Shown: positions 2,770-62,563, numbered from the stretch's first letter. The stretch: DNA of 64,000 nt from Minisyncoccia bacterium (GCA_965656375.1 CBFHKH010000001.1:13432-77431), one strand, 5' to 3'. Numbers and translations are program-made. The notes: generated by a model not told the origin, from the letters alone.

Positions 2770-2798
2770 AACCACTCTTAAAGAGTGGTTTTATTTTG
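2767..2798. terminator. Bidirectional rho-independent terminator between convergent smc and the capA-vanY fusion
   Basis: A 10-bp stem, aaaccactct / agagtggttt, with a 3-nt loop is followed by ttttatttt. It overlaps both stop codons. Confidence 0.6.
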
Positions 2799-4430: not shown

Positions 4431-4431
4431 A

Positions 4432-9114: not shown

Positions 9115-9200
9115 CGCCACGAACTATATGTTTATAAAGTGTGGATAACCGTAATCTCTTTGTGTTGCTAAATATGCACATATCTGGGATACTAAAGTAT

Positions 9201-9860: not shown

Positions 9861-9882
9861 TTTTAGTTACGACTATTAACCT

Positions 9883-10860: not shown

Positions 10861-10870
10861 TTCTACTGTG

Positions 10871-11647: not shown

Positions 11648-11654
11648 TACAGTA

Positions 11655-20100: not shown

Positions 20101-23100
20101 CATGGAGTACAGCCGGTACGTACGACGGATGGAACGCGGTATCTGGATTTACTGGGAACTTCTTGGATGCTCACGTAAACGGAGGAGCGAGTGTCTTCAG
20201 TGTCGACTACACTGGCAAGGTCAATGGCTCAGGGGCGAATTTCTCTGGTCTCACCGCATCATCTGCTGTCTATACAGACGGTTCAAAAAATCTCACCTCA
20301 AGCGCGCCAAGTTCTGGCACCATCGGTTACTGGGCGCGAACTGGAACTCAACTTTCACCTGCATCAATTGGTGACGAAGTAAATATTGGAAATACAACTG
20401 ATCAAGGTGCGTATACACTTCAGAATACAGGGAACTTTTATAATAGTGGCTCAATCGTACAAGTCAGTCCAAGCTTCACAGGTACTCACACCATTGCGTT
20501 TAGTGCTAACAATCAAATAACTTTTACAAATAGTGGAATCGGTGCGTACATGGTAGTAGGAGCAGGTAACTTTGTTGACTTCCAGGGGCAGTCAGTTAGA
20601 TCTACTGGTCGTGGATATATTGCGGGCTCAACAGTAGCAGGAACTTCTCCATTTTCTATAAGCACTGTTCCGGCACAATCATCTGGTACGACTGATAACA
20701 ACTCAATATCAATTACTCAGACGATAAACAACACTGGAACATATTCTGGAGTGTATCGAGGATTTTACTACAATCCGACACTTACATCCCTCACTGGTAC
20801 GACACATCGAGCAATTGAAACGGTAACAGGCGATGTAATCTTAGGTAGTACTAGTGGTAATGTTGGAATCGGGAACCCTACTCCTTTTAGCGGTGCAACT
20901 GTCGCACCATCACTAGAAATCGGAACAACAGGCACAGCAAGTGGTAACCTTATTGTTCGAGGATTTTCAGCACTTGGCAGTACACAAGCTAACGGTTTTG
21001 GTGCGGTTGGTTCAAACTACTATTTGGATTCTTCTAATGCTATACGCAGAAAAAATGGAGATTTCGTATCTGTCCTTGAGTTTCCATCAGGAGGATTTGC
21101 ATTCAAAACATCAGGGAATGGGGCAGCTAACTCTAGTGTGTCACTAACAACTCTCTGGAATATTGCAGCAAGTGGAAATATTACCGCTGGTACTGATAAT
21201 GCATATGATATCGGCGCAAGTGGAGCGAACCGAGCAAGGGACTTCTTTTTAGGAAGAGATGCGGTAATAGGTAGGAACTTTACTATTACAAACGGAAATA
21301 TAAATGCAACGAGTTCTCTCACATCTATAGCAGGTTCAGGTAACGGAAATCTATTTACAACAAATCATACAGTCAATACTTCAGCCTCATATCTTGGTAC
21401 GAACTTCCTTTCAAATGTATCCACTGCTTCAGGTGCCGGTGGAACTGTTGTTGCCCAGCAAGCAACAGTAAACTACTCTGCAACAGCAAATCATATTTCA
21501 GGTATAACTGGGTATCAAATTGATGTTAATCATACGGGTAGTGGAACATTATCGTCTGTATCAGGATTGGTTTCTCAAGGATTTGTTGGAAACAGTGCAA
21601 CAGTATCAAATTATTATGCATTTAAAACACTCGGATTGTTTACCCCGGCGACAGGTGCGGTCACTACTCAGTACGGATACTATTATGACCAAGCATATAT
21701 CACACCTGGTATAGGCTACGCATTTTATTCAAAAGTAAATCCGTCAGGAGGAACACTTGCATCTGCTGCTTCAACTGCTATTAGTATTATCCCTGGTAAT
21801 AGTATTATTCAGATTGGAGGTCAAACCTCCTCATTTCCAGCGTTAAAGCGAAACGGTACGGCAATAAACTTCAGATTGGCGGACGATTCTGCAGATGCGG
21901 CGATCACTGCTTCTGGTGCTACATTCTCTGGCCTTGGAGGTGGGGGTACTCAATGTGTGCAGACAAACAATACGGGAGTACTCTCGGCAGCAGCGTGTGG
22001 TGGAGGTGCGACTCGTCTCGATCAAATCACTGCTGCAACAGGAACTAACAGTATCGACTCGCTCAACTTCGATCAAACATGGAATTGGTCCACTGCTTCT
22101 ACCAGCAGTCCAATGACGCTCACTGCAAACGCTCTTTCGAGTGGCTCACTTCTCACACTTTCTTCAAATAGTACACAGGCAAGTGGAGGTAGCCAGTCAT
22201 TATTGAAAATTGATCTTTCAGGTGCGAATGCAAATACTGGAGAATCTACTTTTGGTGCTAATATATCGAACGGTCACACTGGGACTTCGGGAACTAATTA
22301 TGGAGTAAATTCTATTGCGTACGGTGGGGATACTAATTACGGTTTGTATGCTAGTGGATCTGGAAACGGAACTCAGAATATCGGTGTTGGCGCTGATGCG
22401 TATACTACTAACAATGCTACGGAAAATATTGGACTCATGGCTACTGCTTCAGGAGGTCTGCTAAATTACGCTATCATTGTCCCTCCTACCTACGGTAATG
22501 TTGGTATCGGAAATAGTGCTCCAGGAAGTTTACTTACTGTAGGTTCATCATCACAGTTTAGTGTCACCTCTGCTGGTGTAACCACTATTACTGCATCAAG
22601 TTCCAGTGCATTTACTGTTGCAAAGACTGGAACTAATTATGCGCTCCAAGTTGATACATCAACCGGTTCTGCGGTAACAGGGCTCAAGATTAAAAATAAC
22701 GCAGCCACCGGTGGTGTAGCACTCTCAGCTATTTCTTCAGGTACCAATGAATTCCTCACACTCGACGCAAAAGGAACAGGTGAAGTTCGTATTGGTGGTA
22801 TCTCTACGGGCGACGTTCTCCTTGCAGGAGGTTCAGCAGCAACAGGTTGTACGGTTGCAAACTCAACTGGAAATCTGACCTGTTCCGGCAACATCATCGG
22901 TGGAACTACTGGTACTATCGGCTACTGGTCTCGCTCAGGTACTACACTTACTCCTGCAACAGGAAATGATATCCTCTCAATCCCAACTACAAATACATCT
23001 GGTGCAGACCTTGCAATCACAAACACTGGTGCATATACAGGTACAGGAATATTCAATCTCACTGCAAACTCAGCAACGACGGGTACACTTGCGAGTATTT

Positions 23101-25289
23101 CATCATCATCACTGACCTCAGGTATGCTTGCAAAATATCTTCTCTCAGGATCATCAGCAGTTGCTACTGCCGCAAATTCTGGTTCTATTGCGACATTTGC
23201 TTCAACTGCGACTGGATTTACCGCTGCAACGCAGGCACTTGTCGCCGTGAATTCAAGTGGAACAAACGGAACTACTGGTGTAACAATTCAAGGTATTAAT
23301 TCTACGGTGACGAATGCAGGTACTACGAGTACCAATGTTGCGGGCTTCTTCAGTGCATCAGGTGGAACGAACAACTATGCGCTTATCGTGCCTTCAGGAG
23401 GAGGAAGAGTGGGTATAGGAACAAGTACTCCAACTGCTACGCTCTATGTCACTCAAGCTGCTATGACCTCAGTCGGTTCAGGAAGCGGTACGAACAATAT
23501 TGCGCCGCTTACGATTCTTGGAGGAGCAGGCGGTGCTACTTCTGCAACGTCAGGAACGGTGTTTGGAGGTAATGCTGGTGCTATAAATCTTACTGGTGGA
23601 AATGGTGGAGCTATTACTGGTACCCCAGGTACAGGCTTCGGTGGTAACGGAGGAACGATTAATCTTACTGGAGGAGATGGAGGACTCGGTACGACATTTG
23701 GTGGAGCTGGTGGAAACGTCGAAATTGCAGCTGGCGTTGGAGGATTTTCAACCGGTGTATCAGGAGTGGGAGGATATGCTGCACTTAAAGGAGGGAATGG
23801 TGGCTCGACGAATGGGACTGGTGGCAATGTCTACTTGATCGGTGGAGCAAAAAGTGGTTCTGGATCCGACGGTAATATCTACTTGAATGTTTCACCATCA
23901 CTCACTGTCCGCGGACTCACTGGTATCGGTACAACAAACGCAGTCTATCGTCTTGATGTTCTCAATGACGCCGCAGGACAAACTACATCAAATCGCATCG
24001 CGAACTTCTCAAATGCTGGAGCAACATTCAATACAACGAGTGGAGCGCTCTTGTCCTATGGAGGATATTTCTCCTCGACATCAACTCGATCAACCGGAGC
24101 AAATGATTTGAACAACGTAGCTCTCTATGCGACTGCTTCTGGTGCGCAGAATAACTACGCGGCGATCTTTGATCAGGGAAATGTTGGTATCGGAACCGCA
24201 ACTCCGAACACCTCTTTGCATATCCTTGGCACTCCAAACGTTAATGCTGGTCTCCTTAAGTTACAGGCAAAGACGGGAAGCGGCGAAGATGATGCTGGCA
24301 TCACCTTTTTTGCCATGCCGTCAGGCGCAGATACCAACTCCCGCAACTGGCAGATCGCAAATAACTACCAAGCATACGGCAACTTGGATATAATGCGTAG
24401 CACTTCTAATACAGGGAATCCTACTACTGCTGTCGCATCGTTTGATATGAACGGTAACTTCGGTATCGGTGATACAACACCGGACTACTTGCTTGATGTT
24501 GCTAACACAGGAGTAGACAATAATATCTTTTCTTTAACAGACTCGGACGGAGAGTGTCTCTATAATCCAGAGGCTGGTTCAGTCACGGTTACGTGCTCAT
24601 CAGATGAGCGTCTAAAGAATAATATTGTTGATGCTCCTTCGGCGCTTGCATACTTTAAATCATTCAAAATAAGACAATACAACGTTAGAGCATCTGGTGA
24701 CAGAATGATTGGAGTCATTGCACAAGAAGTATTACAAACAAACCCAGAGCTTGTAACAGTGAGCCCAAGTGGAATGTACTCAGTGCAGTTGCCGAGTCAG
24801 TGGCAAGTAGTGGGAGCGTTACAAGAACTCGATCTTAAAATCGCAGGACTTTCATCGCTTGATACGATGAATAATAATTCGATAGGATATTTAATTAAAA
24901 GCTTTTTGGCCGATGTAGGGAACACTATAGAGAGTATATATGCAAAAGTAATTCATTCTGACCGTATTGAGACGAAAACGCTTTGTGTTGGAAGTACGTG
25001 TGTTACTGAAGAGCAATTCTTGCAAATGGTACAGGGAGCTGGCGGTCAAAATTCTGGTGGTGGAAATGGTGGCAGTGGAGGAGGAAATCTGCCACCAACT
25101 CCACAGACCGACGTCTGTCCAAATATAGATGGTGATCAAGCTATCGTTCCAGATGAAATGCATATTGATCAAGACAACAATTGTGTAGCAAATCCGTCTA
25201 CAGAGGGGGGTGAATCAACTCCTCCAGCTACAGATGGCGAAAGCACAGGTGACGGGGAAAGTACACCACCAGTTACTGACGGGCAATAG
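14124..25289 (+). CDS. Giant (3,721 aa) Gly/Ser/Thr/Asn/Ala-rich surface fiber-like protein. It has an N-terminal signal/anchor, beta-helix-type repeats and a C-terminal phage tail-spike-type intramolecular chaperone (peptidase S74) autocleavage domain.
   Basis: A single uninterrupted 11.2 kb ORF. The N-terminal hydrophobic segment is ISVVFLVLLIVFSI. There are tandem 17-aa SNF(L/F)G..AG repeats. The motif GN(V/I)GIGTTTP...KL recurs at least 10 times. There are Gly-rich GGNGG stretches. The C-terminus carries CSSDERLKNNIV...IGVIAQEVLQTNPELV. Confidence 0.8.
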   Translation: MESLIKNVKKTVVKKKISVVFLVLLIVFSISYSATNAAFNKQINYQGKLTTSVGVAVANGTYNMEFKLYTVSSGGTAVWTETRTGADKVQVTSGLFSVLLGEVTSLSGVDFNQTLYLGVNIGGTGSPAWDGEMTPRKKLGAVPAAVESERVGGFTPAQSASGSQIPVLTSDAIILSGSAAGLTGTSANVLKLQGGSTGDIQFFGATNKISNAGMLTLAGGITVTPFTAANGVVYATSSGVLTQTAASSGASCLISASAGAAPTWGACTAGGYWSRSGTTVSPSTITDKVNIGNATDQGSYILQVTGDQYLDGKLHLKNTDIQEMGTRSISIGADIPSVTDSFFFGQNAATSATGASNSNFLGNNAGYTATYAQNSNFLGNRAGYAATSASGSNFFGYSAGESASSASGSNFFGTSAGNGATSAAESNFLGSYAGGSASSASFSNFLGYAAGYQATSALRSNFFGNSAGQGASNASYSNFIGYLAGKTFSGNNVGSNNIIIGTNISLPNAAANSINIGGILFGTGTYATTTGNASIVPVAAGNIGIGVVSPTARLHLAAGTATANTAPLKFTTGTALTTPEDGSVEYHSSHLYFTIGSTRYQLDQQAAGGGVHLDQIAAALASNGSGIDNLNYAQTWNWSTATTQTPLTLTANGLTTGSILSLTSSSASATTGQKGLNVALTGALTGAQTTYGGYFSNARTGASAVNVGLYATASAAGTNYAAIFDQGNVGIGTTTPASKLDIAGTITTNGDTVSNLVATVSNMNGGTLYGSKIALTAGSGAGAGGAIVANNISTTLSGTTNLPSSIVGLATQTNHGAASGTLTNQVEYQTGPSVTGGATTTTLQHISLRDVFTSTGGTVTNQYGLYINGLTAAATNYGIYFANTPNGGSITSGASTDIAIIPGAGGNVGIGDTTPASLFTVGSGDLFQINSSGNVAAIGGAAHTIANSSGALSIDAASSGALNLNNTGTGDVLLAGGSAATGCTVANSTGNLTCSGNIIGGTTGTIGYWARNNSTFTLTPATANDIISISTNLTTASNKAIEGLQTGATSGTDYAGYFSNTGAATTNVGLYATASGGTNNYAAIFDQGNVGIGTTTPNASYELQIGNGSGSATGRILLSGNGDDEHIMFANSGGNRFRIGQNGTVLGFVSQGTGVGGVGQSFLFTGGTPDTSHQGSLFKISGTFNQAAQVTDGLLVNITNTASAAGSSLANFQIGGSSKFFIDANNGNVGIGTATPGQKLQVEGDVSITRSSFSSTHQIQINNGGNTIGIGFNSPVSTLDIIGSSGSQAYIVSNNAALNVGNRSTGPINFVTQSASGTKWQITSAGNFITGADNSYDIGASGATRPRTGYFGSTVVVGASQIKTLSSTGYYVATRGSLQNPSDGVWLITDAAETSFGRLQLGGTTSSFPAIKRNGTAINFRLADDSADTTITASGATLSTAPTTSAGSYDIITRNSSTGVLEKISSTAMPGGSGTTNYVARWTGTNTLGTGVLYDNNTSVAISDTSTDSVGAKLFVNGAISAVGTIRSFAAKDTYNVAISSNSINAYNYTNPSGQGLSILNVSTGNLALVGGGGNVGIGNASPSGLLSLAGNRTALAWGTTGINFQTAAATYTDSSSSGTVASVVANSFGVPTFAASSATTYTAASNVYIAGAPSAGTNVTITKGYALDVNGPTRIKTNSGSATGLTLTSTGTINWRFGNVATNDFGLFAPTSAGGEVALLNFTDYTDASVPVLRFGGGIAAYGFNPYWGINTTGAGTNYSSDFVVKSFGSTHVTSVSNSSNVLTQWVNSNGDGYFAGNVGIANTSPTAKLDITSTQTATANSQVLGVNLTGTLTARATASDTLYSMRNTQVLTAAANNQNLVGLSIAPTYSLGAFTGTTMFPLDVVGSAGARVRVKALSNGNVELQVGDPTGGGNGGNIRWLRPSGGADGPTISFGNADLAFDNPGYGGFVFTATLGASMSVLKLTNTPYAAGTATTNHPLFYRNGGTAPTTWSTAGTYDGWNAVSGFTGNFLDAHVNGGASVFSVDYTGKVNGSGANFSGLTASSAVYTDGSKNLTSSAPSSGTIGYWARTGTQLSPASIGDEVNIGNTTDQGAYTLQNTGNFYNSGSIVQVSPSFTGTHTIAFSANNQITFTNSGIGAYMVVGAGNFVDFQGQSVRSTGRGYIAGSTVAGTSPFSISTVPAQSSGTTDNNSISITQTINNTGTYSGVYRGFYYNPTLTSLTGTTHRAIETVTGDVILGSTSGNVGIGNPTPFSGATVAPSLEIGTTGTASGNLIVRGFSALGSTQANGFGAVGSNYYLDSSNAIRRKNGDFVSVLEFPSGGFAFKTSGNGAANSSVSLTTLWNIAASGNITAGTDNAYDIGASGANRARDFFLGRDAVIGRNFTITNGNINATSSLTSIAGSGNGNLFTTNHTVNTSASYLGTNFLSNVSTASGAGGTVVAQQATVNYSATANHISGITGYQIDVNHTGSGTLSSVSGLVSQGFVGNSATVSNYYAFKTLGLFTPATGAVTTQYGYYYDQAYITPGIGYAFYSKVNPSGGTLASAASTAISIIPGNSIIQIGGQTSSFPALKRNGTAINFRLADDSADAAITASGATFSGLGGGGTQCVQTNNTGVLSAAACGGGATRLDQITAATGTNSIDSLNFDQTWNWSTASTSSPMTLTANALSSGSLLTLSSNSTQASGGSQSLLKIDLSGANANTGESTFGANISNGHTGTSGTNYGVNSIAYGGDTNYGLYASGSGNGTQNIGVGADAYTTNNATENIGLMATASGGLLNYAIIVPPTYGNVGIGNSAPGSLLTVGSSSQFSVTSAGVTTITASSSSAFTVAKTGTNYALQVDTSTGSAVTGLKIKNNAATGGVALSAISSGTNEFLTLDAKGTGEVRIGGISTGDVLLAGGSAATGCTVANSTGNLTCSGNIIGGTTGTIGYWSRSGTTLTPATGNDILSIPTTNTSGADLAITNTGAYTGTGIFNLTANSATTGTLASISSSSLTSGMLAKYLLSGSSAVATAANSGSIATFASTATGFTAATQALVAVNSSGTNGTTGVTIQGINSTVTNAGTTSTNVAGFFSASGGTNNYALIVPSGGGRVGIGTSTPTATLYVTQAAMTSVGSGSGTNNIAPLTILGGAGGATSATSGTVFGGNAGAINLTGGNGGAITGTPGTGFGGNGGTINLTGGDGGLGTTFGGAGGNVEIAAGVGGFSTGVSGVGGYAALKGGNGGSTNGTGGNVYLIGGAKSGSGSDGNIYLNVSPSLTVRGLTGIGTTNAVYRLDVLNDAAGQTTSNRIANFSNAGATFNTTSGALLSYGGYFSSTSTRSTGANDLNNVALYATASGAQNNYAAIFDQGNVGIGTATPNTSLHILGTPNVNAGLLKLQAKTGSGEDDAGITFFAMPSGADTNSRNWQIANNYQAYGNLDIMRSTSNTGNPTTAVASFDMNGNFGIGDTTPDYLLDVANTGVDNNIFSLTDSDGECLYNPEAGSVTVTCSSDERLKNNIVDAPSALAYFKSFKIRQYNVRASGDRMIGVIAQEVLQTNPELVTVSPSGMYSVQLPSQWQVVGALQELDLKIAGLSSLDTMNNNSIGYLIKSFLADVGNTIESIYAKVIHSDRIETKTLCVGSTCVTEEQFLQMVQGAGGQNSGGGNGGSGGGNLPPTPQTDVCPNIDGDQAIVPDEMHIDQDNNCVANPSTEGGESTPPATDGESTGDGESTPPVTDGQ
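15194..15601 (+). repeat. Eight tandem in-frame 51-nt (17-aa) coding repeats, S-N-F-(L/F)-G-x-x-A-G-x-x-A-T/S-x-A-x-x, inside the giant gene
   Basis: The units SNFLGNNAGYTATYAQN, SNFLGNRAGYAATSASG, SNFFGYSAGESASSASG, SNFFGTSAGNGATSAAE, SNFLGSYAGGSASSASF, SNFLGYAAGYQATSALR, SNFFGNSAGQGASNASY and SNFIGYLAGKTFSGNNV follow one another directly. Confidence 0.7.
17031..17150 (+). repeat. 120-nt intragenic segment duplicated at 22809-22928 at about 96% nt identity (copy A)
   Basis: Both copies encode GDVLLAGGSAATGCTVANSTGNLTCSGNIIGGTTGTIGYW. There are 5 mismatches in 120 nt. Confidence 0.75.
22809..22928 (+). repeat. Copy B of the 120-nt intragenic duplication
   Basis: See copy A. A second, more diverged duplicated module at about 80% nt identity pairs 18343-18435 with 21831-21925 (SSFPA(I/L)KRNGTAINFRLADDSAD..ITASGAT). 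Confidence 0.75.
24590..25000 (+). other. C-terminal intramolecular chaperone / autoproteolysis domain (peptidase S74, phage endosialidase / tail-fiber type) of the giant protein
   Basis: It matches the conserved core S-D-x-R-L-K-x-N-I...(A)QEV...P..V and the following helical segment (LQELDLKIAGL...IESIYAKV). By analogy the scissile Ser is expected directly before DERLK. Confidence 0.6.
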
Positions 25290-35627: not shown

Positions 35628-37391
35628 ATGATCGATTTCCAAAAGTTACTATCAGAACAATCTTCAGTGAAGGTAGTTTTGAACGGAGGGCACTCCGTAT
35701 TAGAAGATGCAACTGTTCCCTTTATGATAGGACTCGACGACAAAACTGCTGAAAGGCAACCTACACATGTGTTGGTAATTACATTGCCACATTCATCTTA
35801 TGAAACCCATTATGGATCGTTAGACGATGCAAAAAGATGGTGTACTCAGGCTGGTGAAAGGCAAATATTCGAACTGAACAAGATTGGATATTTGCAATTC
35901 CACAAGCCTGGAAAACAAAATGTAATTTTTGTGCTTATCAAAGATTTAAACCGTGAAAGAAAAGGAGAACTTTTGAAAAAAAGAAGCTTGTGCACGCATT
36001 ATTCAAATGAAATCCATTTTTCCGATGTTGAAGCAAATACAATTACCGGGGTTAATGTGGTGGGGTATTGTGAAGAGTTGATCGAAATACCAAAAGAATT
36101 TTTTGCTACGAAACCAGAAAAAGGTTTACGACTGGAGTGGCACAAATGGGTAAACCGATGGTGGCTATCTTCGCCAATTGATGAATGCCAATTCAGAAAA
36201 AGAGCGATAATAGCAACAACTATCCAGCCTATTGCCTGGGTTTTGGGATTTACCTTACGTTTCATCTTTGCGATGGTATGTAATGTTTTGTACCCAACGA
36301 TCATATTACTTGCTTTCCTGGTTGGTTCGCAATTCGGGGCAAAACAATTCTTCATTAATTTGGGTAAACTGAACTGGGATTTTCTATTCCTGTTTAGAAA
36401 GCTGCGATGGAGTAATGTCCTTGCAATTTCGGATTTCTTTTTTCAGGAGGATAAATGGTTCGAATTTAAGGAGTACAGGATGGGTAAGAAATCATTCGGT
36501 ATACCTATATCGCCGCTTGGCCTGACTATACAGATTATTTCAGGAATCTATCTTTATTTAGCTTTCTATTCTATAATTTTTCTGCAAAGAGATTTTATAG
36601 GATCGTTTGTGCAGGGATCGATCGCAATTCTGGTTACTCTATGGCACGCCTTCTTTGTTGTAAGTACTATGCCGTATGATGGAGTAGATAAATGGCTTGA
36701 TAAAACGTTAGGTGAAAAAGAAAAGTTTAAAATCAACCGTATCTGGACTATCATAGGTACAATGATCTTTATTTTGGGTGTGACAGCATTTTCAATATGG
36801 ATGCCGTGGGTTAAAACTGGCAATGCCATTAGTTCATTTGTTATAACATATTGGAAATTCATTGCCGTAATAGCAGGGGTAGTATTATTCTTTACCTTTG
36901 GTAAAAAGGTTTTAAAGCACTATTACAAAAGAACTCTGGTGTTCTTGATGTTTGCCACGGTGACCTATGCGATTTTGGTGATAATGACCCCCAGCATGTT
37001 GTTTAAAAGTAATTATTCATTTAGTACTAAACATTGGATTGTAATTATCACTGGCCTGGTATTTATCCTCATCTCAGTTTTTGGTAGTAAACTATCTTAC
37101 GTAATGAATAGTATTGCTAAGAAACTCAGCAAGATGGAGATATTTAAAAAGCAAGAATCTAAAAAACTTGCTCCAGTTCAAATCAAGACAACGCAGTACG
37201 TGTCACCAAGCCTTGGGCTTGATGAGTGGTATAAGAAGAACATGGCAATCACTGATCTGCCGGTGAATGTGAATAACTTAACCCCAAAAGACATCGTTGC
37301 TCCAACAAAAAAAGCAGCCTTTGTTCTGCAATTCAAAGTTGGGTATTGGCGACTGAAATCAAAGCTATGTAAGCCGTATGCTAAGAGTTAA
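35628..37391 (+). CDS. Hypothetical polytopic membrane protein: roughly 150-aa N-terminal soluble domain plus about 10 predicted TM helices
   Basis: Complete ORF in an AT-rich segment. The hydrophobic segments include AWVLGFTLRFIFAMV and ILLAFLVGSQFG. No motif was recognised. Confidence 0.45.
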   Translation: MIDFQKLLSEQSSVKVVLNGGHSVLEDATVPFMIGLDDKTAERQPTHVLVITLPHSSYETHYGSLDDAKRWCTQAGERQIFELNKIGYLQFHKPGKQNVIFVLIKDLNRERKGELLKKRSLCTHYSNEIHFSDVEANTITGVNVVGYCEELIEIPKEFFATKPEKGLRLEWHKWVNRWWLSSPIDECQFRKRAIIATTIQPIAWVLGFTLRFIFAMVCNVLYPTIILLAFLVGSQFGAKQFFINLGKLNWDFLFLFRKLRWSNVLAISDFFFQEDKWFEFKEYRMGKKSFGIPISPLGLTIQIISGIYLYLAFYSIIFLQRDFIGSFVQGSIAILVTLWHAFFVVSTMPYDGVDKWLDKTLGEKEKFKINRIWTIIGTMIFILGVTAFSIWMPWVKTGNAISSFVITYWKFIAVIAGVVLFFTFGKKVLKHYYKRTLVFLMFATVTYAILVIMTPSMLFKSNYSFSTKHWIVIITGLVFILISVFGSKLSYVMNSIAKKLSKMEIFKKQESKKLAPVQIKTTQYVSPSLGLDEWYKKNMAITDLPVNVNNLTPKDIVAPTKKAAFVLQFKVGYWRLKSKLCKPYAKS

Positions 37392-37456: not shown

Positions 37457-38245
37457 TTAGAGTTGCTCAGAGACTGATTCGTCGCCGGTTTTGAGGAGGC
37501 CGAAGAGAAGATCGCTGTATTTCCAGAATGCGTCATTGCCTTTCAATTGTGCGATGCAATCTGCGGCTACGAGCTTCTCGAATGAATGTTGATGGATGGG
37601 GTAGTGACGGTAGATCCAGCGGACGCTCTCTCCATTTTCTTTGATGATACGCTCCATTGTTGGATGGAATTGCTTGCAGAACGGACATTCAAAGTCTGAG
37701 TATTCTATTACCGTAACAACTGGATTCGAGGCGCCCATGGTATGATCATTTGGTTCACTGATGGCAACGCTTCCTTTATAAACTTCACTGATGTTTTGTG
37801 TCTCTATTTTTGTAGTTCCATCAGCTTGCTTGACTGAAACGTCTGCTGTCGCAATACGTCCTTCTTTCGCTGCCGCAATGATCATATTCGTTCGTTCATA
37901 GCTATCAGCGCCTCGGATCTCAGTCTTGAATCCGTTTGGACCGATAACAACACTATATGGTGTACCTCGCTCATCTTTCGGAATGTGGCTCATAGCTTTA
38001 TCTACACTCTCGCTTATTCGCGTCGAAACGGCATCTACATCTGTCGCTACAATGCATGCATTGAGCTTGTCTTTTGATACACCGACTTGTTCTGATAATG
38101 TTTTTGATTGACCACTGTTTACTGAAAATCCACCTGTACCAGCTCCTTTTGTTATTATGATTCCTATCATAATGAGAAATCCTGCTAGTACGATAGCTAC
38201 TGGAGTTGATAATTGTTGTTTTGGTTGTGTATTGTTTTCTTCCAT
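37457..38245 (-). CDS. Membrane-anchored DsbA/thioredoxin-family thiol:disulfide oxidoreductase with an extra N-terminal domain
   Basis: There is an N-terminal TM (VAIVLAGFLIMIGIII). The CxxC active site lies in VIEYSDFECPFCKQFHP. The overall fold pattern is DsbA-like. Confidence 0.6.
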   Translation of the reverse strand: MEENNTQPKQQLSTPVAIVLAGFLIMIGIIITKGAGTGGFSVNSGQSKTLSEQVGVSKDKLNACIVATDVDAVSTRISESVDKAMSHIPKDERGTPYSVVIGPNGFKTEIRGADSYERTNMIIAAAKEGRIATADVSVKQADGTTKIETQNISEVYKGSVAISEPNDHTMGASNPVVTVIEYSDFECPFCKQFHPTMERIIKENGESVRWIYRHYPIHQHSFEKLVAADCIAQLKGNDAFWKYSDLLFGLLKTGDESVSEQL

Positions 38246-38380: not shown

Positions 38381-38668
38381 ATGACATGTAATTGTAATCA
38401 CGGTAAATGTGGACTTGCAAAGTTCGCATGGGTTCTCGTTGTTATTGGTGGTCTTAACTGGGGTCTTGTCGGTCTCGGCATGCTCATGAATTCTGACTGG
38501 AATGTAGTTGGAATGCTTCTCGGTTCATGGCCTATGGTGCTTGCAATCGTTTACCTCTTGGTAGGTATTGCGACACTTGTTAAGCTCTTTGGCTGCCCAT
38601 GCAAGAAGTGCAAGGAATGCACAGTAGCTACTCCAAGTGCAACTTCTACACCAGGTTCAACAATGTAA
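38381..38668 (+). CDS. DUF378-family small membrane protein with Cys-rich N- and C-terminal tags
   Basis: The core VLVVIGGLNWGLVGL...LVGIATLVKLF matches the DUF378 signature. It is flanked by CNCNHGKC and CPCKKCKEC. Confidence 0.55.
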   Translation: MTCNCNHGKCGLAKFAWVLVVIGGLNWGLVGLGMLMNSDWNVVGMLLGSWPMVLAIVYLLVGIATLVKLFGCPCKKCKECTVATPSATSTPGSTM

Positions 38669-38747: not shown

Positions 38748-39989
38748 ATGGAATCCACCTCAAGCATCGTATTTTATATAATTTCCTTCCTGCTCATGTA
38801 TACCCAGATCTTCTTTATGGTCACGTTCTTAGAGAAGAGACGAGAGATTAAAAAGCGAGTGGATTCGATTGATCTTGATGACTATCCTGCCATCACTGTT
38901 ATTGTCCCATGTTGGAACGAAGAGAAAACAATTCAAAAGACAGTAGAATCTCTTTTGAATGTACGGTATCCTCGAGACAAATTTTTTATTTTTTTGATAA
39001 ATGACGGAAGTACCGATCGGACAGAAGAAGTGTGCCGACAGTATGAAGGCAATTCTCAGATTCGCATATTTACGCAAGAGAATAGTGGTAAACATGCAGC
39101 TCTTAATCTCGGACTTTCACATGTCACTACTCCGTTTGTCGCATGTCTTGATGCTGATTCGTATGTCGATAAAGAAGCTGTCGTTCGAATGATGACTTAT
39201 TTCCAGAATCCGAAAGTGATGGCTGTCGCTCCTGTAGCGATTGTGGATGCCCCGAATACCTTCATGCAGAAGATTCAGCGTGTAGAGTACAATATGTCTG
39301 CTTTTACCAAGCAAATGCTTGCGCTTGTTGGAGGAATGCATGTGACACCGGGAACCCTTCCCATATACAGAAAGGAAGTTTTTGATAAGATCGGAGGATT
39401 TCGTCATGCATATAATACCGAAGATGGGGAGATAGCCCTTCGAATGCACAAGAATCATTTGAAGATCGCATACTGTGCTGATGCGTATGTATACACTACG
39501 GCGCCATCCTCAATTCCAAAGCTCTACAAGCAGCGTCTTCGCTGGATGTATGGTTTCATAAACAATGTCATAGATTATCGATCTATGTTGTTCAATCCAA
39601 AATACGGCGCCCTCGGGCTCCTCAGCCTTCCTTCAGGATTGATCGCGATCGTAGGTATTGTCTTCCTTTTTTTTAAATTCATTGGGAATCTGTTTAATTA
39701 TGTATATCTCAAAGCGGTCCAGTATAGTGTCGTAGGAACTGAAGGCGTTGTAAGTCATTTTCGCTTCGATTGGTTTTCTGTCAATACGAAAGCAATTGTA
39801 TTTATTATTTTAATAATGTATATTTTCTCCATACTATCGATCATCATCGGGACGAGAATTGTTTCCATGAAAACTAAATTCCCGTTACATACGGTCTCAT
39901 TTATGGTAGTATATACATTCATCGCCCCGTTTTGGATGTTAAAAGCGATTTATAATGTCCTTACATCAAAGCAAACCTCTTGGCGATAA
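38748..39989 (+). CDS. Processive family-2 glycosyltransferase (NodC/IcaA/PgaC/hyaluronan-synthase-like) with N- and C-terminal TM segments
   Basis: Motifs ITVIVPCWNEE, DGSTD, CLDADSYVD, TEDGE and QRLRW (the QxxRW motif) are present. TM helices flank the catalytic domain. Confidence 0.8.
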   Translation: MESTSSIVFYIISFLLMYTQIFFMVTFLEKRREIKKRVDSIDLDDYPAITVIVPCWNEEKTIQKTVESLLNVRYPRDKFFIFLINDGSTDRTEEVCRQYEGNSQIRIFTQENSGKHAALNLGLSHVTTPFVACLDADSYVDKEAVVRMMTYFQNPKVMAVAPVAIVDAPNTFMQKIQRVEYNMSAFTKQMLALVGGMHVTPGTLPIYRKEVFDKIGGFRHAYNTEDGEIALRMHKNHLKIAYCADAYVYTTAPSSIPKLYKQRLRWMYGFINNVIDYRSMLFNPKYGALGLLSLPSGLIAIVGIVFLFFKFIGNLFNYVYLKAVQYSVVGTEGVVSHFRFDWFSVNTKAIVFIILIMYIFSILSIIIGTRIVSMKTKFPLHTVSFMVVYTFIAPFWMLKAIYNVLTSKQTSWR

Positions 39990-39998
39990 TATATTTTT

Positions 39999-40730
39999 AT
40001 GGAAAAAAAAGATTCATCATCATTCATTAAGTACGTTGCTGTTTTTATCATAACGCTTTTTGTATTTGTTATCGCATCCTACCTTTCAGATTTCTTCACG
40101 AATAAGAAAATCCAGAGTATCAAGACGATCCAGGACAATATATTCCTTGACCTTCTTTCGTCTGAAACGCAATTCTCTCTTTTGCAAGAGATTCCATGCA
40201 ATACAGATAGTGGCTCAATCGTTTCTCCCGAGATGAATAACCTCGCTCAGAAAGTTGCCTCAAGCGAGCGAAGCTCAAGTATAAGCGAAGATGAAATTAC
40301 CAGTCTCAAAAAGTATTATTCAATACTCGAGATCAAAGATTATCTTTTGATGAAACGGATCAGCCAGCGCTGTTCTACTAAAAATGAGTTCATGCTTTAT
40401 TTCTACGAAAGCGATACGTGTGATGAATGTATGAAGCAGGAATATGTTCTCGATGCACTTCGAGTCAAATATCCTCAGTTACGAGTGTATCTCTTCGATA
40501 CAAAACTTGATCTTTCTGCACTTCGTTCGATGATAAGCATCTACAAGCCGGAAAAAGACTCAACATCATGGCTTGTCGTTAATGACAAAGTGTATACTGG
40601 ATTCAAATCAGTAGAAGATATTGAAAAGATAATTCCTACACTCAAAGCATCGGTAAAAGATGAATCAAAATCTTCATCGAGTGGAGAGAGTGCTACATCA
40701 TCAAGCAAACCTACCTCAAAGACTCGCTAA
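39999..40730 (+). CDS. Membrane-anchored thioredoxin-like protein with an atypical CDEC motif and a Ser-rich C-terminal tail (tentative)
   Basis: There is an N-terminal TM. MLYFYESDTCDECMKQEY...WLVVNDKVYTGFKSVEDIEKII fits the thioredoxin beta1-CxxC-alpha1 ... beta4 layout. Confidence 0.35.
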   Translation: MEKKDSSSFIKYVAVFIITLFVFVIASYLSDFFTNKKIQSIKTIQDNIFLDLLSSETQFSLLQEIPCNTDSGSIVSPEMNNLAQKVASSERSSSISEDEITSLKKYYSILEIKDYLLMKRISQRCSTKNEFMLYFYESDTCDECMKQEYVLDALRVKYPQLRVYLFDTKLDLSALRSMISIYKPEKDSTSWLVVNDKVYTGFKSVEDIEKIIPTLKASVKDESKSSSSGESATSSSKPTSKTR

Positions 40731-40733
40731 TAT

Positions 40734-41177
40734 ATGAAAAGTTTGTCTCGGAAGTTCATAACCTTTTCTCTTATAGGTATACTCAATACGCTGATCGACT
40801 TTGCGTTCTTCAATGGATGTATCTTTGTATTTGGACTGCCATATCTATGGTCATACCCACTCTATAAAGGGGTGAGCTTTACGATCGCATGTATTAACAG
40901 CTACTTTCTCAATACTCGATTTACATTTCAGGTAGAGAAAAAGACTGTCCATTCTTTTTCTTACTTTTTCCTTGCTACGATATCGGGCATGGCAATAAAT
41001 ATCTTGATTGCAACTGTTTTGTTCGCAGTGACCGAAGGGACAGGCATATCGTTATTCATACGTGCAAATGGGTCTGCTATTATTGCCACAATTGTGAGCA
41101 TGGTATGGAACTTTATTTTTTATAATTATGTTGTATTCCGTTCAAACAATAAAACAGTGGATAAAGAATCCATCTAA
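40734..41177 (+). CDS. GtrA-family small membrane protein (polyprenyl-phosphate sugar translocation, flippase-like)
   Basis: A 4-TM protein. FSLIGILNTLIDFAFFN...NSYFLNTRFTF...VWNFIFYNYVVFR matches the GtrA pattern. Confidence 0.7.
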   Translation: MKSLSRKFITFSLIGILNTLIDFAFFNGCIFVFGLPYLWSYPLYKGVSFTIACINSYFLNTRFTFQVEKKTVHSFSYFFLATISGMAINILIATVLFAVTEGTGISLFIRANGSAIIATIVSMVWNFIFYNYVVFRSNNKTVDKESI

Positions 41178-42561
41178 TCTTTTTGTCGTACTTTTTCTTG
41201 TACTGATAGGGGCACGGATTGTAGATATCTTGCGACCTGCGACACTCTGGTGGGATGCATCTGTGTATATTGGTATGGCACGATACCTGTCATCTTTTGG
41301 AGCGAACGGCCTCTGGGAATTTTTCCGCCCACCCCTTTTACCGATTATATTTTCTGTTGGAGGATTTCTTCATATTGGGCTCATTTTCTGGGCAAAGCTC
41401 GTTACATTTTTCTTTGCTGCAGGTTCACTTGTTCTACTCTATCGCATCGGTGAGCGCATTCGCCCATTCGTAGGTGTGTGTGCAAGCTTCATACTTGGGA
41501 TTGCAAGTCTATTTGTGAGCTTTACTACAGTGCCAATGACAGAGATTTCTGGTATCTTCTTCAGTCTGGTTGCACTGTATCTCTTTATCTCAAAAAGGAA
41601 TACATTTATTGTAGGAATAGGTGTTGCACTTTGTTTCCTGCTCAGATTTCCGTACGGAATTCTTTTTCCGCTATTTGGACTTTTGATACTTGTGTCTGGG
41701 ATAGTAAATCGTACTCGATTTAAAGATGTATTTGTATCTGCACTCATGTATGGCCTCGGATTTGCGCTCATCATACTACCGTATCTTATTCTCAATAGAG
41801 TGTTGTATGGAAGCTACCTTGAACCCTTTATTGTAGGCAGTCAGATGATTACAGGATCGCTCTGGCTCTATGATCAATCGGTATGGTTTTACACACAAAA
41901 GCTTTTTATAGATAATCCGATCTCACTTTTTTCTCTGGTAGCCATCGTCTCTATAGGTAAAAGAGAACTCTCAAAAGAACAGAAAATATTTCTTGTTTTC
42001 TTGTGTGCATGGGTTCTTATATTCTTGGGCTACTTTACTTCTAACCCTCACAAGGAATGGAGATATATCGCGCCAGTTCTGCCTGCGCTCGCACTCCTTG
42101 CCGGGGTTGGTCTCTTCTATTCATATCGTTTTTTGAACAAAATCTTTTTCATTCTCGTAGTTCTTGCGATGTCAGTCTACGCGTTCTCACATACGACTAT
42201 CTACACCGCTACAAAAGTAGAATCAGGTGCCTATAGAGAATTCTATAACTTTCTAAAGACAGAACGAAATGCTACGGTTATATCGGATTCTCCGATCATT
42301 ACTGCATACTCGCCAGTCCGTATTATACCTGCATATGATACGTGGGAGAATTTCCACCGTGTTTATAGCGAGAGCAGAGACAAAGCTGACTATATCCTGA
42401 TCAATACATGCGAGCTTCATGTTTGTGTTCCGGGGAAAGAAAAGGAGTGTGAAGCAAAGAGATTAAATACCCTAAACGAGATAGAAAAAAGAGAATCCAT
42501 CATCTACGACAAGACCGAGATGAGTTGTCGCCTTATTATTAGTAAGATTAACAAGCAGTAG
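41128..42561 (+). CDS. Polytopic GT-C-type glycosyltransferase-like membrane protein (ArnT/PMT/GtrC-like), about 11 TM plus a C-terminal soluble domain
   Basis: Overlaps the GtrA-like gene by 50 nt. Multiple TM helices carry conserved Asp/Arg in the first loops (WWDASVYIGMARYL). It sits between GtrA-like and GtrB-like genes. Confidence 0.5.
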   Translation: MLYSVQTIKQWIKNPSNLFVVLFLVLIGARIVDILRPATLWWDASVYIGMARYLSSFGANGLWEFFRPPLLPIIFSVGGFLHIGLIFWAKLVTFFFAAGSLVLLYRIGERIRPFVGVCASFILGIASLFVSFTTVPMTEISGIFFSLVALYLFISKRNTFIVGIGVALCFLLRFPYGILFPLFGLLILVSGIVNRTRFKDVFVSALMYGLGFALIILPYLILNRVLYGSYLEPFIVGSQMITGSLWLYDQSVWFYTQKLFIDNPISLFSLVAIVSIGKRELSKEQKIFLVFLCAWVLIFLGYFTSNPHKEWRYIAPVLPALALLAGVGLFYSYRFLNKIFFILVVLAMSVYAFSHTTIYTATKVESGAYREFYNFLKTERNATVISDSPIITAYSPVRIIPAYDTWENFHRVYSESRDKADYILINTCELHVCVPGKEKECEAKRLNTLNEIEKRESIIYDKTEMSCRLIISKINKQ

Positions 42562-42562
42562 C

Positions 42563-43297
42563 ATGGATATAAGCATCATCATTCCTGCATATAATGAAGA
42601 GAAGCGAATCAAAAAGACGCTTGATGCTGTTTCAAGCTTTCTCCGTACAAGGAACATGGCATTTGAAATAATTGTTGTTGCCAATAACTGTACTGATAAC
42701 ACCGTTTCGCTTCTTGAGAATCTTAAAGAAAGCTCAATTCCAGAACTTGTAATTATAAACATTCCTCATGAAGGTATAGTCGGAAATACAAAAGGCTACG
42801 CTGTCGAAGTGGGCATGAGAGCTGCCAGGGGAGCATGGCATCTTTTTATTGACGCTGATAATGCGACTCGGTTTACAGAAGTACTTGAGTTTCTGAAATA
42901 TGGTTGTGGTGGATACGATGTGATTATCGGCTCGCGGTATATTTCCGGGGCTCATGTAGTAAAGAAACAGCCACTGTATCGTATTATATTGTCGCGTGTG
43001 AGCAACCTTTTGATTCGCCTCGTTCTTCTTCCTGGTATCTACGATACACAGTGTGGATTTAAAATGTTCCGAAAAGATGTGTCAGAAAAGATTTTTTCCC
43101 GTACGACCATCGAGGGTTGGGGAGCAGATCTCGAAATGCTTGCAATCGCTCGAGTATGGAAATTCAAGATAAAAGAAGCTCCGGTCTATTGGGAGGCGCA
43201 AGATGAATCTACCGTACGGTCACATGCCTTCTTCTATACACTCAAGGAGTTATTTGTTATACGTCATCGTGTACTGAAAGGGGATTATAAAAGATAA
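42563..43297 (+). CDS. Family-2 glycosyltransferase, polyprenyl-phosphate sugar synthase type (GtrB/DPM1-like)
   Basis: Motifs ISIIIPAYNEE, FIDADNAT and GSRY are present. Confidence 0.8.
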   Translation: MDISIIIPAYNEEKRIKKTLDAVSSFLRTRNMAFEIIVVANNCTDNTVSLLENLKESSIPELVIINIPHEGIVGNTKGYAVEVGMRAARGAWHLFIDADNATRFTEVLEFLKYGCGGYDVIIGSRYISGAHVVKKQPLYRIILSRVSNLLIRLVLLPGIYDTQCGFKMFRKDVSEKIFSRTTIEGWGADLEMLAIARVWKFKIKEAPVYWEAQDESTVRSHAFFYTLKELFVIRHRVLKGDYKR

Positions 43298-43338
43298 AAC
43301 AAAACACTCACATCTAAATGTGAGTGTTTTGTTTTATC

Positions 43339-43413
43339 TGGAGCCGCTTCTCAGACTCGAACTGAGGACCTTCGCTTTACAAAAGCGTTGCTCTACCAAC
43401 TGAGCTAAAGCGG
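43339..43413 (-). tRNA. tRNA-Thr (anticodon UGU)
   Basis: The reverse complement folds as a cloverleaf. The acceptor stem is GCCGCTT / AAGCGGC. The D arm is GCTC-AGTTGGTA-GAGC. The anticodon loop is TTTGTAA. The T arm is CTCAG-TTCGAGT-CTGAG. The discriminator is T and CCA is encoded. Confidence 0.85.
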
Positions 43414-43462
43414 CAATATAATATCTATCCTAACACCTTGTCTAAATTTACCAAAGCCGACG

Positions 43463-61504: not shown

Positions 61505-62563
61505 ATGAATAGATTTCTAAAGGCTTTAAAACATTTTTTCATACCGCATAAGCACAACGACTACAAGCCGCATCTCCTTCGTGAGGTTTCTATTGTCTCA
61601 ATCACTATTGGTGCTATTGTACTCCTATCTATTTCTGCAGGTACAAGCCTTTATATAAAGAATACAAATATGACCGCTACAGTCCTTCCGGCTGTGCTTG
61701 TCGACCTTACAAACAATGTCCGTGCATCGAATAATGAACGGATACTTACTCGTAGTGACGTACTCGATACCGCAGCACGGCTTAAAGCAGAAGACATGGC
61801 TCGCAATGGTTACTTTGCTCATACGAGTCCCGCTGGTCTTTCTCCATGGCATTGGTTCAATGAAGCAGGATATTCTTTTAAATACGCAGGAGAGAACCTC
61901 GCAATAGACTTTAGTGAGTCTGTAGATGTACAAAATGCATGGCTCAACTCTCCAACACACAAGGCAAATATCTTGGGAAGTCGTTTTACTGAGATCGGTA
62001 TCGCTACTGTAGATGGTATGTATCAAGGTCACGCAACTACATATGTAGTAGAGATGTTCGGAATGCCCGCAGCTTCACCAATTGCAAAGGCTAAGAGTCC
62101 TACACCTGCGAAAGTAGAAACAGGTATGCAAGCCGGACCTGTTCCTTTGACTGAAGCTCCTATCACAGTTAGAACTGCGCCAGCAGTTGAAGGTGAGTCC
62201 ATTGCACTTCCACCAGAGCAAAATCTTGAAACAGTAACAGAAACGAAAGAATTCGTAGAAGTAAAGAATAATGCTACACAAGAAAAAGTAGAGACACCTA
62301 TTATACAGGAAGTACACTACTCAAAGTGGTACGAGAAGTTTATGTTCCTCACTCCAGCGTATGCGAATCTCATCTACAAGATATGTATGTGGGTAGTTCT
62401 TGTAGCGCTTCTTCTTATGATAATCATAGAGTTTCGAAGACAGCATCTCCGAAATATATTCTATGGAGTTTTACTCTTGGTCATAATGTTCTCCTTTGTG
62501 TATATCAACAAGGCTCTGTTCATAAATAGCTTTTCATCAGAACCTATTATAAATTTTATCTAA
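61505..62563 (+). CDS. CAP / SCP / PR-1-like domain protein with an N-terminal TM and a C-terminal TM anchor
   Basis: The CAP core is ARLKAEDMARNGYFAHTSP...KYAGENLA...AWLNSPTHKANIL. A Pro/Glu-rich linker and C-terminal hydrophobic helices follow. Confidence 0.7.
   Translation: MNRFLKALKHFFIPHKHNDYKPHLLREVSIVSITIGAIVLLSISAGTSLYIKNTNMTATVLPAVLVDLTNNVRASNNERILTRSDVLDTAARLKAEDMARNGYFAHTSPAGLSPWHWFNEAGYSFKYAGENLAIDFSESVDVQNAWLNSPTHKANILGSRFTEIGIATVDGMYQGHATTYVVEMFGMPAASPIAKAKSPTPAKVETGMQAGPVPLTEAPITVRTAPAVEGESIALPPEQNLETVTETKEFVEVKNNATQEKVETPIIQEVHYSKWYEKFMFLTPAYANLIYKICMWVVLVALLLMIIIEFRRQHLRNIFYGVLLLVIMFSFVYINKALFINSFSSEPIINFI

Follow-up and report, generated by a model that had tools for sequence, protein, structure and literature searches.

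The 64,000-nucleotide stretch analysed here (the window), from a Minisyncoccia bacterium (GCA_965656375.1 CBFHKH010000001.1:13432-77431), carries at 38748-43297 a run of five genes encoding, in order, a membrane glycosyltransferase of family GT2 (GT2syn), a membrane-anchored protein of thioredoxin fold (TrxTM), a small GtrA-family protein, a polytopic protein predicted to be a GT-C-fold glycosyltransferase and a second GT2 enzyme resembling DPM1 and ALG5. Comparison with related loci identified GT2, TrxTM and GT-C as a module common to Paceibacteria and DPANN archaea; in the bacteria, the GtrA/GT-C/DPM1 triad is a rare accessory extension of a conserved GT2-TrxTM pair. The flanking genes (rpoB, rpoC, dnaG and rpoD upstream; tsf, rpsB, proS and mreB downstream) and the closest relatives place the host as a Paceibacteria-type member of the Candidate Phyla Radiation (CPR).

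Most members of the Paceibacteria and DPANN archaea, both abundant groups, are uncultured and are thought to live attached to other cells, and to our knowledge their surface chemistry is almost unknown. The locus offers a concrete candidate for a surface-glycan pathway; in Paceibacteria it occupies a conserved housekeeping position between rpoD and tsf/rpsB, and it is found again in DPANN archaea.

Conservation of the GT2-TrxTM pair and position of the triad in Paceibacteria

The five open reading frames (ORFs) described in an earlier reading of this DNA (the original prediction) were confirmed with their boundaries unchanged (Table 1). All lie on the plus strand with intergenic gaps of 9, 3, -50 and 1 nt, bearing out the single strand, the tight spacing and the 50-nt overlap between the GtrA and GT-C genes that had been reported; the overlap recurs in the relative L001. 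The last gene has its stop codon within a perfect hairpin, which, judging from a terminator-like scan and its sequence, is likely to be a bidirectional terminator and the end of the operon.

A TrxTM-seeded search yielded 80 metagenome loci, 74 of which retained upstream and 48 downstream sequence. A GT2 gene stood directly upstream of TrxTM in every one of the 74, and in the protein P0331 GT2 was fused to the TrxTM protein, the GT2 part being 35% identical to the window protein over 409 residues and the gene lying at an orthologous locus, with tsf, rpsB, proS, mreB and mreC downstream. On this adjacency and the fusion, TrxTM is a fixed partner of the GT2 and not a bystander. The backbone of these loci runs rpoD, a DsbA-like gene on the minus strand, an optional DUF378 gene, GT2, the TrxTM gene, a variable slot, tRNA-Thr, a gene for a 141-aa protein, tsf and rpsB. 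In 20/20 related loci the tRNA-Thr gene was found at this position, immediately following TrxTM when the slot was empty; in the window the 3' end of the tRNA gene forms the far boundary of the slot that contains the triad.

A GT-C gene was found downstream of TrxTM in 3 of the 48 loci. In all seven Paceibacteria GT-C examples the triad lay in the same place, in the order Trx, GtrA, GT-C, DPM1, and the identical five-gene order was present in L001, L002, L006, L086 and L129, with L098 partial where its contig ends. The order GtrA, GT-C, GtrB-like that had been pointed out in the window therefore holds in these relatives, and the genes are not scattered among related genomes, the triad being either complete in the same order or absent.

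Elsewhere (L079-L162) the slot carried an ice-binding-like surface protein, a sugar-binding protein with a histidine kinase, MscL and others, and also GDSL hydrolases with IS200-type transposases. A dedicated glycan-modification site was considered and rejected, since this cargo, with the exception of two GDSL hydrolases, is unrelated. Recent integrase-mediated insertion of the triad was likewise rejected, as neither an integrase nor a repeat was found and the 3-nt gap leaves no room for an attachment site; the GC content of the triad is similar to that of its surroundings.

The DsbA-like gene, which encodes a membrane-anchored thiol-disulfide oxidoreductase, is divergent from the operon, and a homologue lay within 900 nt upstream of GT2 in 31 of 39 Paceibacteria loci; its product probably supplies disulfides to the extracytoplasmic parts of the system. 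The DUF378 gene was a frequent but not constant neighbour, immediately 5' of GT2 in 22 of the 39 related loci, and its small membrane protein is rich in Cys at both ends (MTCNCNHGKCG... and ...CPCKKCKEC) and carries a Ser/Thr/Pro tail.

Linkage of the module in DPANN archaea

A scan seeded with the most conserved GT-C motif, taking one genome per species, returned 78 loci. Three were from Paceibacteria, one was labelled 'bacterium' and one came from Terriglobia, while the rest belonged to DPANN archaea (Woesearchaeota, Nanoarchaeota, Pacearchaeota, Aenigmatarchaeota and Iainarchaeum), whose archaeal origin was borne out by neighbouring RadA, eRF1 and TruD genes. Linkage was counted in the 41 loci where GT-C had 2.5 kb or more of sequence on each side, the window proteins being searched against all ORFs. 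A GT2 homologue lay within 6 kb of GT-C in 37 of the 41, a thioredoxin homologue in 36 and both in 35; for the archaeal subset (n = 38) the corresponding counts were 34, 33 and 32. The last of these strengthened the pairing of the triad with a processive-type GT2, which had been proposed from the window. GtrA was near GT-C in just 4 of the GT-C-seeded loci and a DPM1-like gene in 12. Whereas in the bacteria GtrA and DPM1 accompany GT-C, in most archaea they do not, perhaps because archaea already make dolichyl-phosphate sugars for N-glycosylation.

The order of the genes was not fixed. In 13 loci GT2, Trx and GT-C followed one another co-directionally in this order, and in 9 of these stop and start codons overlapped; 10 loci had a head-to-head and 9 a tail-to-tail arrangement. 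Since the linkage persists despite rearranged gene order, we take it to be functional. For GT-C, GT2 and Trx alike, neighbour-joining trees grouped the Paceibacteria sequences in a single clade nested among far more diverse archaeal ones. Transfer from archaea to bacteria is only suggested by these trees, its direction being tentative because the bacterial sample was picked by similarity to the window, rooting was by midpoint only and the trees carry no support values.

Some archaeal loci have a further gene between Trx and GT-C, encoding a protein of about 700-790 aa with weak similarity to TrxTM (Table 1). The proteins from L024, L036 and L062 had no Pfam match.

The membrane GT2 synthase

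GT2syn matched Pfam Glyco_tranf_2_3 (2.4e-36) and, weakly, Chitin_synth_2. Its best curated model was PgaC_IcaA of NCBIfam, aligned over residues 11-409 of 413 with 177.8 bits, and its best relatives in the PDB were BcsA and chondroitin synthase. Residues D86, D135xD137, Q177xxE180Y181, E225D226, Q262RxRW266 and the C-terminal W412 were conserved across 68 Paceibacteria and 48 archaeal homologues, the QxxRW motif of the window protein being QRLRW at 262-266. One N-terminal and three or four C-terminal hydrophobic segments flank the GT-A domain, which is predicted to be cytoplasmic, and the basic C-tail ends in the conserved Trp. These motifs and helices are those of the processive membrane GT2 synthases of the cellulose, chitin, hyaluronan, NodC and poly-N-acetylglucosamine (PNAG) type, GT2syn being processive by family only. 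The assignment to a QxxRW-type GT2 of the NodC/PgaC/hyaluronan-synthase kind thus stands, with the D,D,D, QxxEY, ED and QRLRW motifs intact.

The thioredoxin-fold partner

The thioredoxin-like membrane protein that had been noticed after the GT2 gene proved to be single-pass, with a transmembrane (TM) helix, a long helical region, a thioredoxin-fold domain carrying CDEC, and a Ser/Thr-rich tail. Its CxxC sits where the first helix of the fold begins, as in the thioredoxin superfamily. A family profile searched against PDB sequences gave weak thioredoxin matches alone (E of 0.028 or worse), and homology to Ost3/6 was not detected in this search. The family is large: a word-indexed search found at least 722 relatives, and a full scan of 1.84 billion representatives gave 1151 clusters at 50% identity, for which there is no Pfam model. 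Across 134 bacterial and archaeal sequences, C67 and C125 never varied. All sampled Paceibacteria had the CxxC, which was present in 72/80% of archaea (C141/C144) and was lost in one close relative.

TrxTM is predicted to be N-in and C-out, with its thioredoxin domain probably outside the cell. The charge pattern of the Paceibacteria proteins is ambiguous on its own; the prediction rests on archaeal homologues, in which basic residues predominate in the N-tail (K+R 3.8, D+E 0.8) but not in the segment following the helix, on the lysine-rich linker of the P0331 fusion, on the invariant Cys pair and on the many tails rich in Ser/Thr/Pro. An extracytoplasmic thioredoxin domain also fits the divergent DsbA-like gene. 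A sizeable unannotated family has been recognised as the fixed partner of a membrane GT2 and, if TrxTM is needed for glycan synthesis or attachment, it would represent a new type of accessory subunit in this class of enzyme.

The GT-C enzyme

Taken alone, the window protein gave only sub-threshold matches (GT22, E = 0.009; LA_3751/3752, 1.9e-8), scoring 15.7 bits against the gathering score of 23.8 for Pfam PF03901 (GT22/Alg9-like), and as a single sequence searched against the PDB it returned noise. Its homologues, however, carry precomputed matches to PF13231 (PMT_2), PF03901 (GT22) or PF04922 (ALG10), and a profile of 17 homologous sequences matched ALG12 (5e-6), ArnT (7e-6) and ALG9. An AlphaFold model was obtained with a pLDDT (predicted local distance difference test) of 89.8, and its top 25 Foldseek matches in the PDB were all GT-C proteins (ALG12, ALG9, STT3, ArnT, AglB, Pmt4 and AftA) at a TM-score of about 0.6; PimE was also among the fold matches. 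Residues W42 and D43 in the first outer loop, and Y47, R67, P68, K309, E310 and R312, are invariant, and the HKExRY motif aligns with that of ALG9 and ALG12. The protein ends in an extracytoplasmic domain of about 100 aa, with four conserved Cys in most members. By profile and modelled fold the polytopic protein is a true GT-C-fold transferase; this was the point on which the original prediction could have fallen. The family assignments proposed as a check came out as expected, with PF00535 and PF04138 on the DPM1/ALG5-like and GtrA proteins, respectively, and PMT_2 on homologues of the GT-C enzyme.

GtrA and the DPM1/ALG5-like GT2

The small protein that had been called GtrA-like matched GtrA_DPMS_TM (PF04138) at 3.2e-18, with 66.5 bits being well over the cut-off of 26.1, and we propose that it acts as a flippase and/or as a membrane anchor for the soluble DPM1-like enzyme. 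The latter matched Glycos_transf_2 (PF00535) at 9e-24, and its best solved relative was the Pyrococcus dolichyl-phosphate mannose synthase (PfDPMS, 5mlz), aligned at 3e-13 over residues 1-231, the whole catalytic domain; ArnC, PpgS and DPhHxTase gave weaker matches. The enzyme had been described as GtrB/DPM1-like, and the resemblance to DPM1/ALG5 was upheld while that to GtrB was not, since the protein is soluble and lacks the membrane helices of GtrB. It is a candidate polyprenyl-phosphate hexose synthase, the use of a lipid-phosphate acceptor being suggested by its relatives. Its homologues are named 'dolichyl-phosphate beta-glucosyltransferase' by JGI and NCBI. The hexose is perhaps glucose, a suggestion drawn only from these source names and from a DTQCGFK motif, which we take to be a feature of ALG5.

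The GtrA protein and the DPM1-like enzyme look like the two parts of the fused GtrA-GT2 proteins that archaeal and CPR relatives encode, here split between separate genes. A single-sequence search of GtrA against the PDB, aimed at a link to the PfDPMS membrane domain, gave no match; the link between the two rests on the Pfam family definition, on the fusion proteins and on the report that the membrane domain of the type-III Pyrococcus enzyme is GtrA-like and may flip its own product (PMC12992685).

Fusion proteins

Fusions joined members of the module to each other and to one further enzyme. Fused GtrA-GT2 proteins were found near GT-C in the archaeal loci L010, L023, L060 and L078, and a Berkelbacteria protein had a close homologue of the DPM1-like enzyme fused to GtrA. 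Together with P0331 these fusions point to two functional units, one of GT2 and Trx, the other of GtrA and the DPM1-like enzyme. P0269 and P0291 have Trx fused to a PIG-L/LmbE GlcNAc (N-acetylglucosamine) de-N-acetylase domain with PHLDDA and PDHxxxH motifs; the P0269 gene lies directly 3' of a GT2 in a Patescibacteria genome, and its deposited name, 'PIG-L family deacetylase', overlooks the N-terminal half. Through the Trx-PIG-L fusion, the GT2-Trx pair is linked to a substrate that bears GlcNAc, in the way that IcaB and PgaB belong with PNAG. The GT2-Trx, Trx-PIG-L and GtrA-GT2 fusions each yield direct hypotheses about function.

Relation to known systems

The triad contains the component types of Gtr-type systems such as GtrA-GtrB-Gtr* of Shigella and Salmonella, GtcA-CsbB/GtlA-YfhO/GtlB of Listeria and Bacillus and the streptococcal GacI-GacJ-GacK-GacL, likewise encoded by clustered genes. 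The logic of such three-component systems has been established for other glycans (PMC11127046 and, in the portion drawn on here, PMC7389260). A GT2 synthase, a GtrA protein and a GT-C with an acidic residue in an outer loop (W42 D43) are all present, so that the prediction of a three-component glycosylation set was upheld in composition; transfer of a sugar to an exported glycan would follow by analogy. There are differences, however. The donor GT2 is a soluble protein of 244 aa of DPM1/ALG5 kind, without the C-terminal helices of GtrB, the order is GtrA, GT-C, GT2, the triad is joined to a synthase-type GT2 and TrxTM, and the GT-C subfamily is mainly archaeal.

GT2syn resembles the synthases of the IcaADBC and PgaABCD systems, and NodC, chitin and hyaluronan synthases, in its size (413 aa), its D,D,D/ED/QRxRW motifs and its full-length alignment to PgaC_IcaA, and the locus shares with PNAG systems a small membrane partner directly downstream and, in some relatives, an attached deacetylase. 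The partner, however, is the single-pass, thioredoxin-fold TrxTM and not the two-helix PgaD/IcaD, the linked deacetylase is PIG-L/LmbE and not CE4, neither PgaA/PgaB nor IcaC is present, and there is no sign of control by cyclic di-GMP. An assignment of GT2syn as a PgaC/IcaA equivalog was rejected, given its score below the cut-off, its different partner and the lack of a CE4 gene in the operon.

Several eukaryotic and archaeal enzymes are related in part. The catalytic domain of PfDPMS (type III) aligns over its whole length with the DPM1-like protein, but in the window the catalytic domain and GtrA are encoded by separate genes flanking GT-C, and the fused archaeal neighbours have GtrA at the N-terminus, the reverse of PfDPMS. 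ALG9 and ALG12 (GT22) are the best fold and profile matches of the GT-C enzyme, with the HKExRY motif aligned and the Pfam GT22 cut-off missed; ALG5 enters through the source names of donor synthase homologues. Oligosaccharyltransferase with Ost3/Ost6 also combines a membrane-anchored CxxC thioredoxin protein with a GT-C, and we regard this as an analogy only. Ost3/6 have an N-terminal thioredoxin domain followed by four C-terminal membrane helices, and the architecture of TrxTM is reversed, with one N-terminal helix and then the thioredoxin domain.

Proposed mechanism and alternatives

We propose that an exported N-acetylhexosamine (HexNAc) glycan is hexosylated outside the membrane from a polyprenyl-phosphate sugar, a reading to which we give about an even chance. 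GT2syn would use UDP-HexNAc, most likely UDP-GlcNAc, at the cytoplasmic face, and would make a beta-linked GlcNAc-containing chain and pass it across the membrane. GlcNAc was chosen because of the family resemblance to PgaC/IcaA, the weak Chitin_synth_2 match and the PIG-L fusion. TrxTM would be a fixed subunit that handles or receives the chain outside, as PgaD, IcaD and BcsB do for their synthases. The DPM1/ALG5-like GT2 would dock on or work with GtrA and charge polyprenyl phosphate with a hexose, possibly glucose, GtrA would bring the lipid-linked sugar to the outer face, and the GT-C enzyme would transfer it onto the exported chain. The gene identities, the folds, the conserved catalytic motifs, the fixed GT2-Trx pairing and the recurrent linkage of GT-C to this pair are what the analysis shows; which polymer is made, which sugar is donated, what accepts it and whether the proteins form a physical complex are matters of interpretation.

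Several observations weigh against this proposal. GT2syn falls short of the equivalog cut-off of TIGR03937 (PgaC/IcaA) at 177.8 against 422.3 bits and, because it lies so far below it, the type of polymer is not established. It also has a weaker match to Pfam Glyco_transf_21 (3.4e-11), QxxRW being found in the lipid-glycosylating GT21 enzymes as well, and its C-terminal topology is ambiguous from sequence. A CxxC thioredoxin domain has no explained role in polysaccharide export. In 45 of the 48 Paceibacteria loci the pair is found without the triad and, as the slot carries unrelated cargo elsewhere, adjacency in the bacteria alone could be incidental. Lastly, 21 archaeal loci have beside the module a paralogous pair of genes, X1 and X2, for proteins of about 480-510 aa with 8-11 TM helices (among them L004, L005, L007, L014, L015, L016, L024, L031, L033, L036-L038, L040, L043, L045, L062, L065, L066, L071 and L072). 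X1 always precedes X2; the X1 profile matches STT3/AglB (6.4e-9) and that of X2 does so more weakly, and both proteins are short and seemingly without the canonical WWDYG motif. An STT3/AglB-like pair in this position hints at protein glycosylation.

The GT-C enzyme might accordingly glycosylate secreted or membrane proteins from a polyprenyl-phosphate sugar in the manner of PMT or ArnT, with TrxTM holding Cys-containing substrates, as Ost3/Ost6 (MagT1/TUSC3) do for STT3, and with the GT2 supplying or priming the glycan. Such a role would suit a CxxC thioredoxin domain predicted to lie outside the cell, the two STT3/AglB-like paralogues, a GT-C resembling ALG9, ALG12, STT3 and ArnT, and the Ser/Thr-rich tails on the TrxTM and DUF378 proteins of the window. 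There are precedents in the modification of Ser/Thr-rich regions by a GtrB-type enzyme and a GT-C in streptococci (PMC12041528, in the portion drawn on) and in the established thioredoxin subunits of oligosaccharyltransferase (PMC4137057, likewise in part). We nevertheless consider it unlikely, since TrxTM is tied to the GT2 (74/74 loci and one fusion) and not to GT-C, the PIG-L fusion indicates a GlcNAc substrate, the TrxTM profile search detected no similarity to Ost3/6, and X1/X2-type, STT3-like genes are found neither in the window nor in the Paceibacteria loci. The Ser/Thr tail of TrxTM was itself tried as the acceptor of the GT-C enzyme and rejected, because its Ser/Thr content does not track the presence of GT-C (mean 0.20 with GT-C against 0.26 without).

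The rarity of the triad and the variability of the slot between TrxTM and tRNA-Thr, with its unrelated cargo elsewhere, would be explained if the triad were a self-contained kit in a recombination-prone site, with peptidoglycan, a teichoic-acid-like polymer, pili or another structure as the acceptor that it decorates; in other bacteria, three-component kits behave as modular, mobile units (PMC11127046). This we hold to be distinctly unlikely, given that the GT-C subfamily is linked to GT2-Trx in 32 of the 38 archaeal loci and in three orientations, that the 7/7 Paceibacteria examples share one place and their GT-Cs form one clade, and that the window has a 3-nt gap and no repeat or integrase. 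A lipoglycan appears quite improbable. The GT2 would then glycosylate a membrane lipid, like GT21 or a processive glycosyl-diacylglycerol synthase, and the GT-C enzyme would extend the product outside, as for mycobacterial lipomannan. The Glyco_transf_21 match agrees with this, QxxRW is common to lipid glycosyltransferases, and GT-C enzymes such as PimE, one of the fold matches, extend glycolipids. The full-length best match, however, is PgaC/IcaA, the QxxEY/ED/QRxRW motifs and C-terminal Trp resemble those of chitin, hyaluronan and NodC synthases, and the module occurs in both bacteria and archaea, two groups with different membrane lipids; a lipoglycan would be consistent with the PIG-L fusion but is not favoured by it.

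The preferred reading, a hexosylated exported HexNAc glycan, can be extended, though we offer the extension tentatively and think it somewhat improbable as a whole. A GT2, an extracytoplasmic TrxTM and one to three GT-Cs would constitute an undescribed synthase-dependent surface-glycan machine, shared by the ultrasmall DPANN archaea and Paceibacteria through inter-domain transfer. It would build a GlcNAc-based, hexose-decorated coat through which these episymbionts meet their hosts, with the thioredoxin subunit playing a novel redox-linked part in exporting or attaching the glycan. Our searches of the searchable literature found no description of a GT2/thioredoxin-fold/GT-C module in CPR or DPANN.

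Other features of the window and related loci

Table 1. Positions of the genes and elements discussed. Coordinates are those of the window unless a related locus is named.
Feature	Location	Strand	Size	Remarks
PGA_cap + VanY fusion	2778-4430	-		
Secreted CE4 polysaccharide deacetylase	4432-5121	-		
Run of secreted proteins	9141-13604			precedes giant ORF
Giant ORF	14124-25289	+	3721 aa	N-terminal hydrophobic segment
Polytopic membrane protein	35628-37391	+	587 aa	between rpoD and DsbA-like gene
DsbA-like oxidoreductase	37457-38245	-		Pfam Thioredoxin_4 3.6e-14, DSBA 2.7e-7
DUF378 small membrane protein	38381-38668	+		Pfam DUF378 2.2e-11
Membrane GT2 synthase (GT2syn, gene 1)	38748-39989	+	413 aa	
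TrxTM thioredoxin-fold partner (gene 2)	39999-40730	+	243 aa	
GtrA-family protein (gene 3)	40734-41177	+	147 aa	
Predicted GT-C-fold glycosyltransferase (gene 4)	41128-42561	+	477 aa	
DPM1/ALG5-like GT2 (gene 5)	42563-43297	+	244 aa	
Perfect hairpin, 20-bp stem	43292-43339			overlaps gene 5 stop codon; terminator-like scan and sequence
tRNA-Thr(TGT)	43339-43414	-		ARAGORN; abuts hairpin
CAP domain protein	61505-62563	+		N-terminal membrane anchor
Archaeal insert, about 700-790 aa	L024:5501-7864			
Archaeal insert, about 700-790 aa	L028:2050-4155			
Archaeal insert, about 700-790 aa	L033:5893-7977			
Archaeal insert, about 700-790 aa	L036:5822-7939			
Archaeal insert, about 700-790 aa	L038:5765-7963			
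Archaeal insert, about 700-790 aa	L062:5538-7745			
X1/X2 pair (example)	L014:2771-5774			
GT2-Trx fusion (P0331)	L165:3970-6123		717 aa	
Trx-PIG-L fusion (P0269)	L163:6001-7428			
bAvd-like gene + reverse transcriptase	L082:11467-12838			between rpsB and proS

The 587-aa polytopic membrane protein encoded upstream of the operon had no Pfam or NCBIfam match. It was considered as part of the module and rejected, as no homologue was present in the sampled loci, and its gene seems to be a genome-specific insertion.

A secreted CE4 polysaccharide deacetylase is encoded beside a PGA_cap and VanY fusion on the minus strand (2778-5121). No other CE4 gene occurs in the window; this one is 34 kb away from the synthase gene, and the deacetylase could act on peptidoglycan or on the product of GT2syn. 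The giant ORF encodes a protein with a sole Pfam match, to Peptidase_S74 (endosialidase chaperone) near its C-terminus, and is probably a surface fibre or adhesin. In the run of secreted proteins that precedes it, three match no family and one has CarboxypepD_reg and fn3.

On a related Paceibacteria contig, a bAvd-like gene and a reverse transcriptase lie between rpsB and proS; the two probably make up a diversity-generating retroelement, which the window lacks. Close to its end, the window encodes a membrane-anchored protein with a CAP (cysteine-rich secretory protein) domain.

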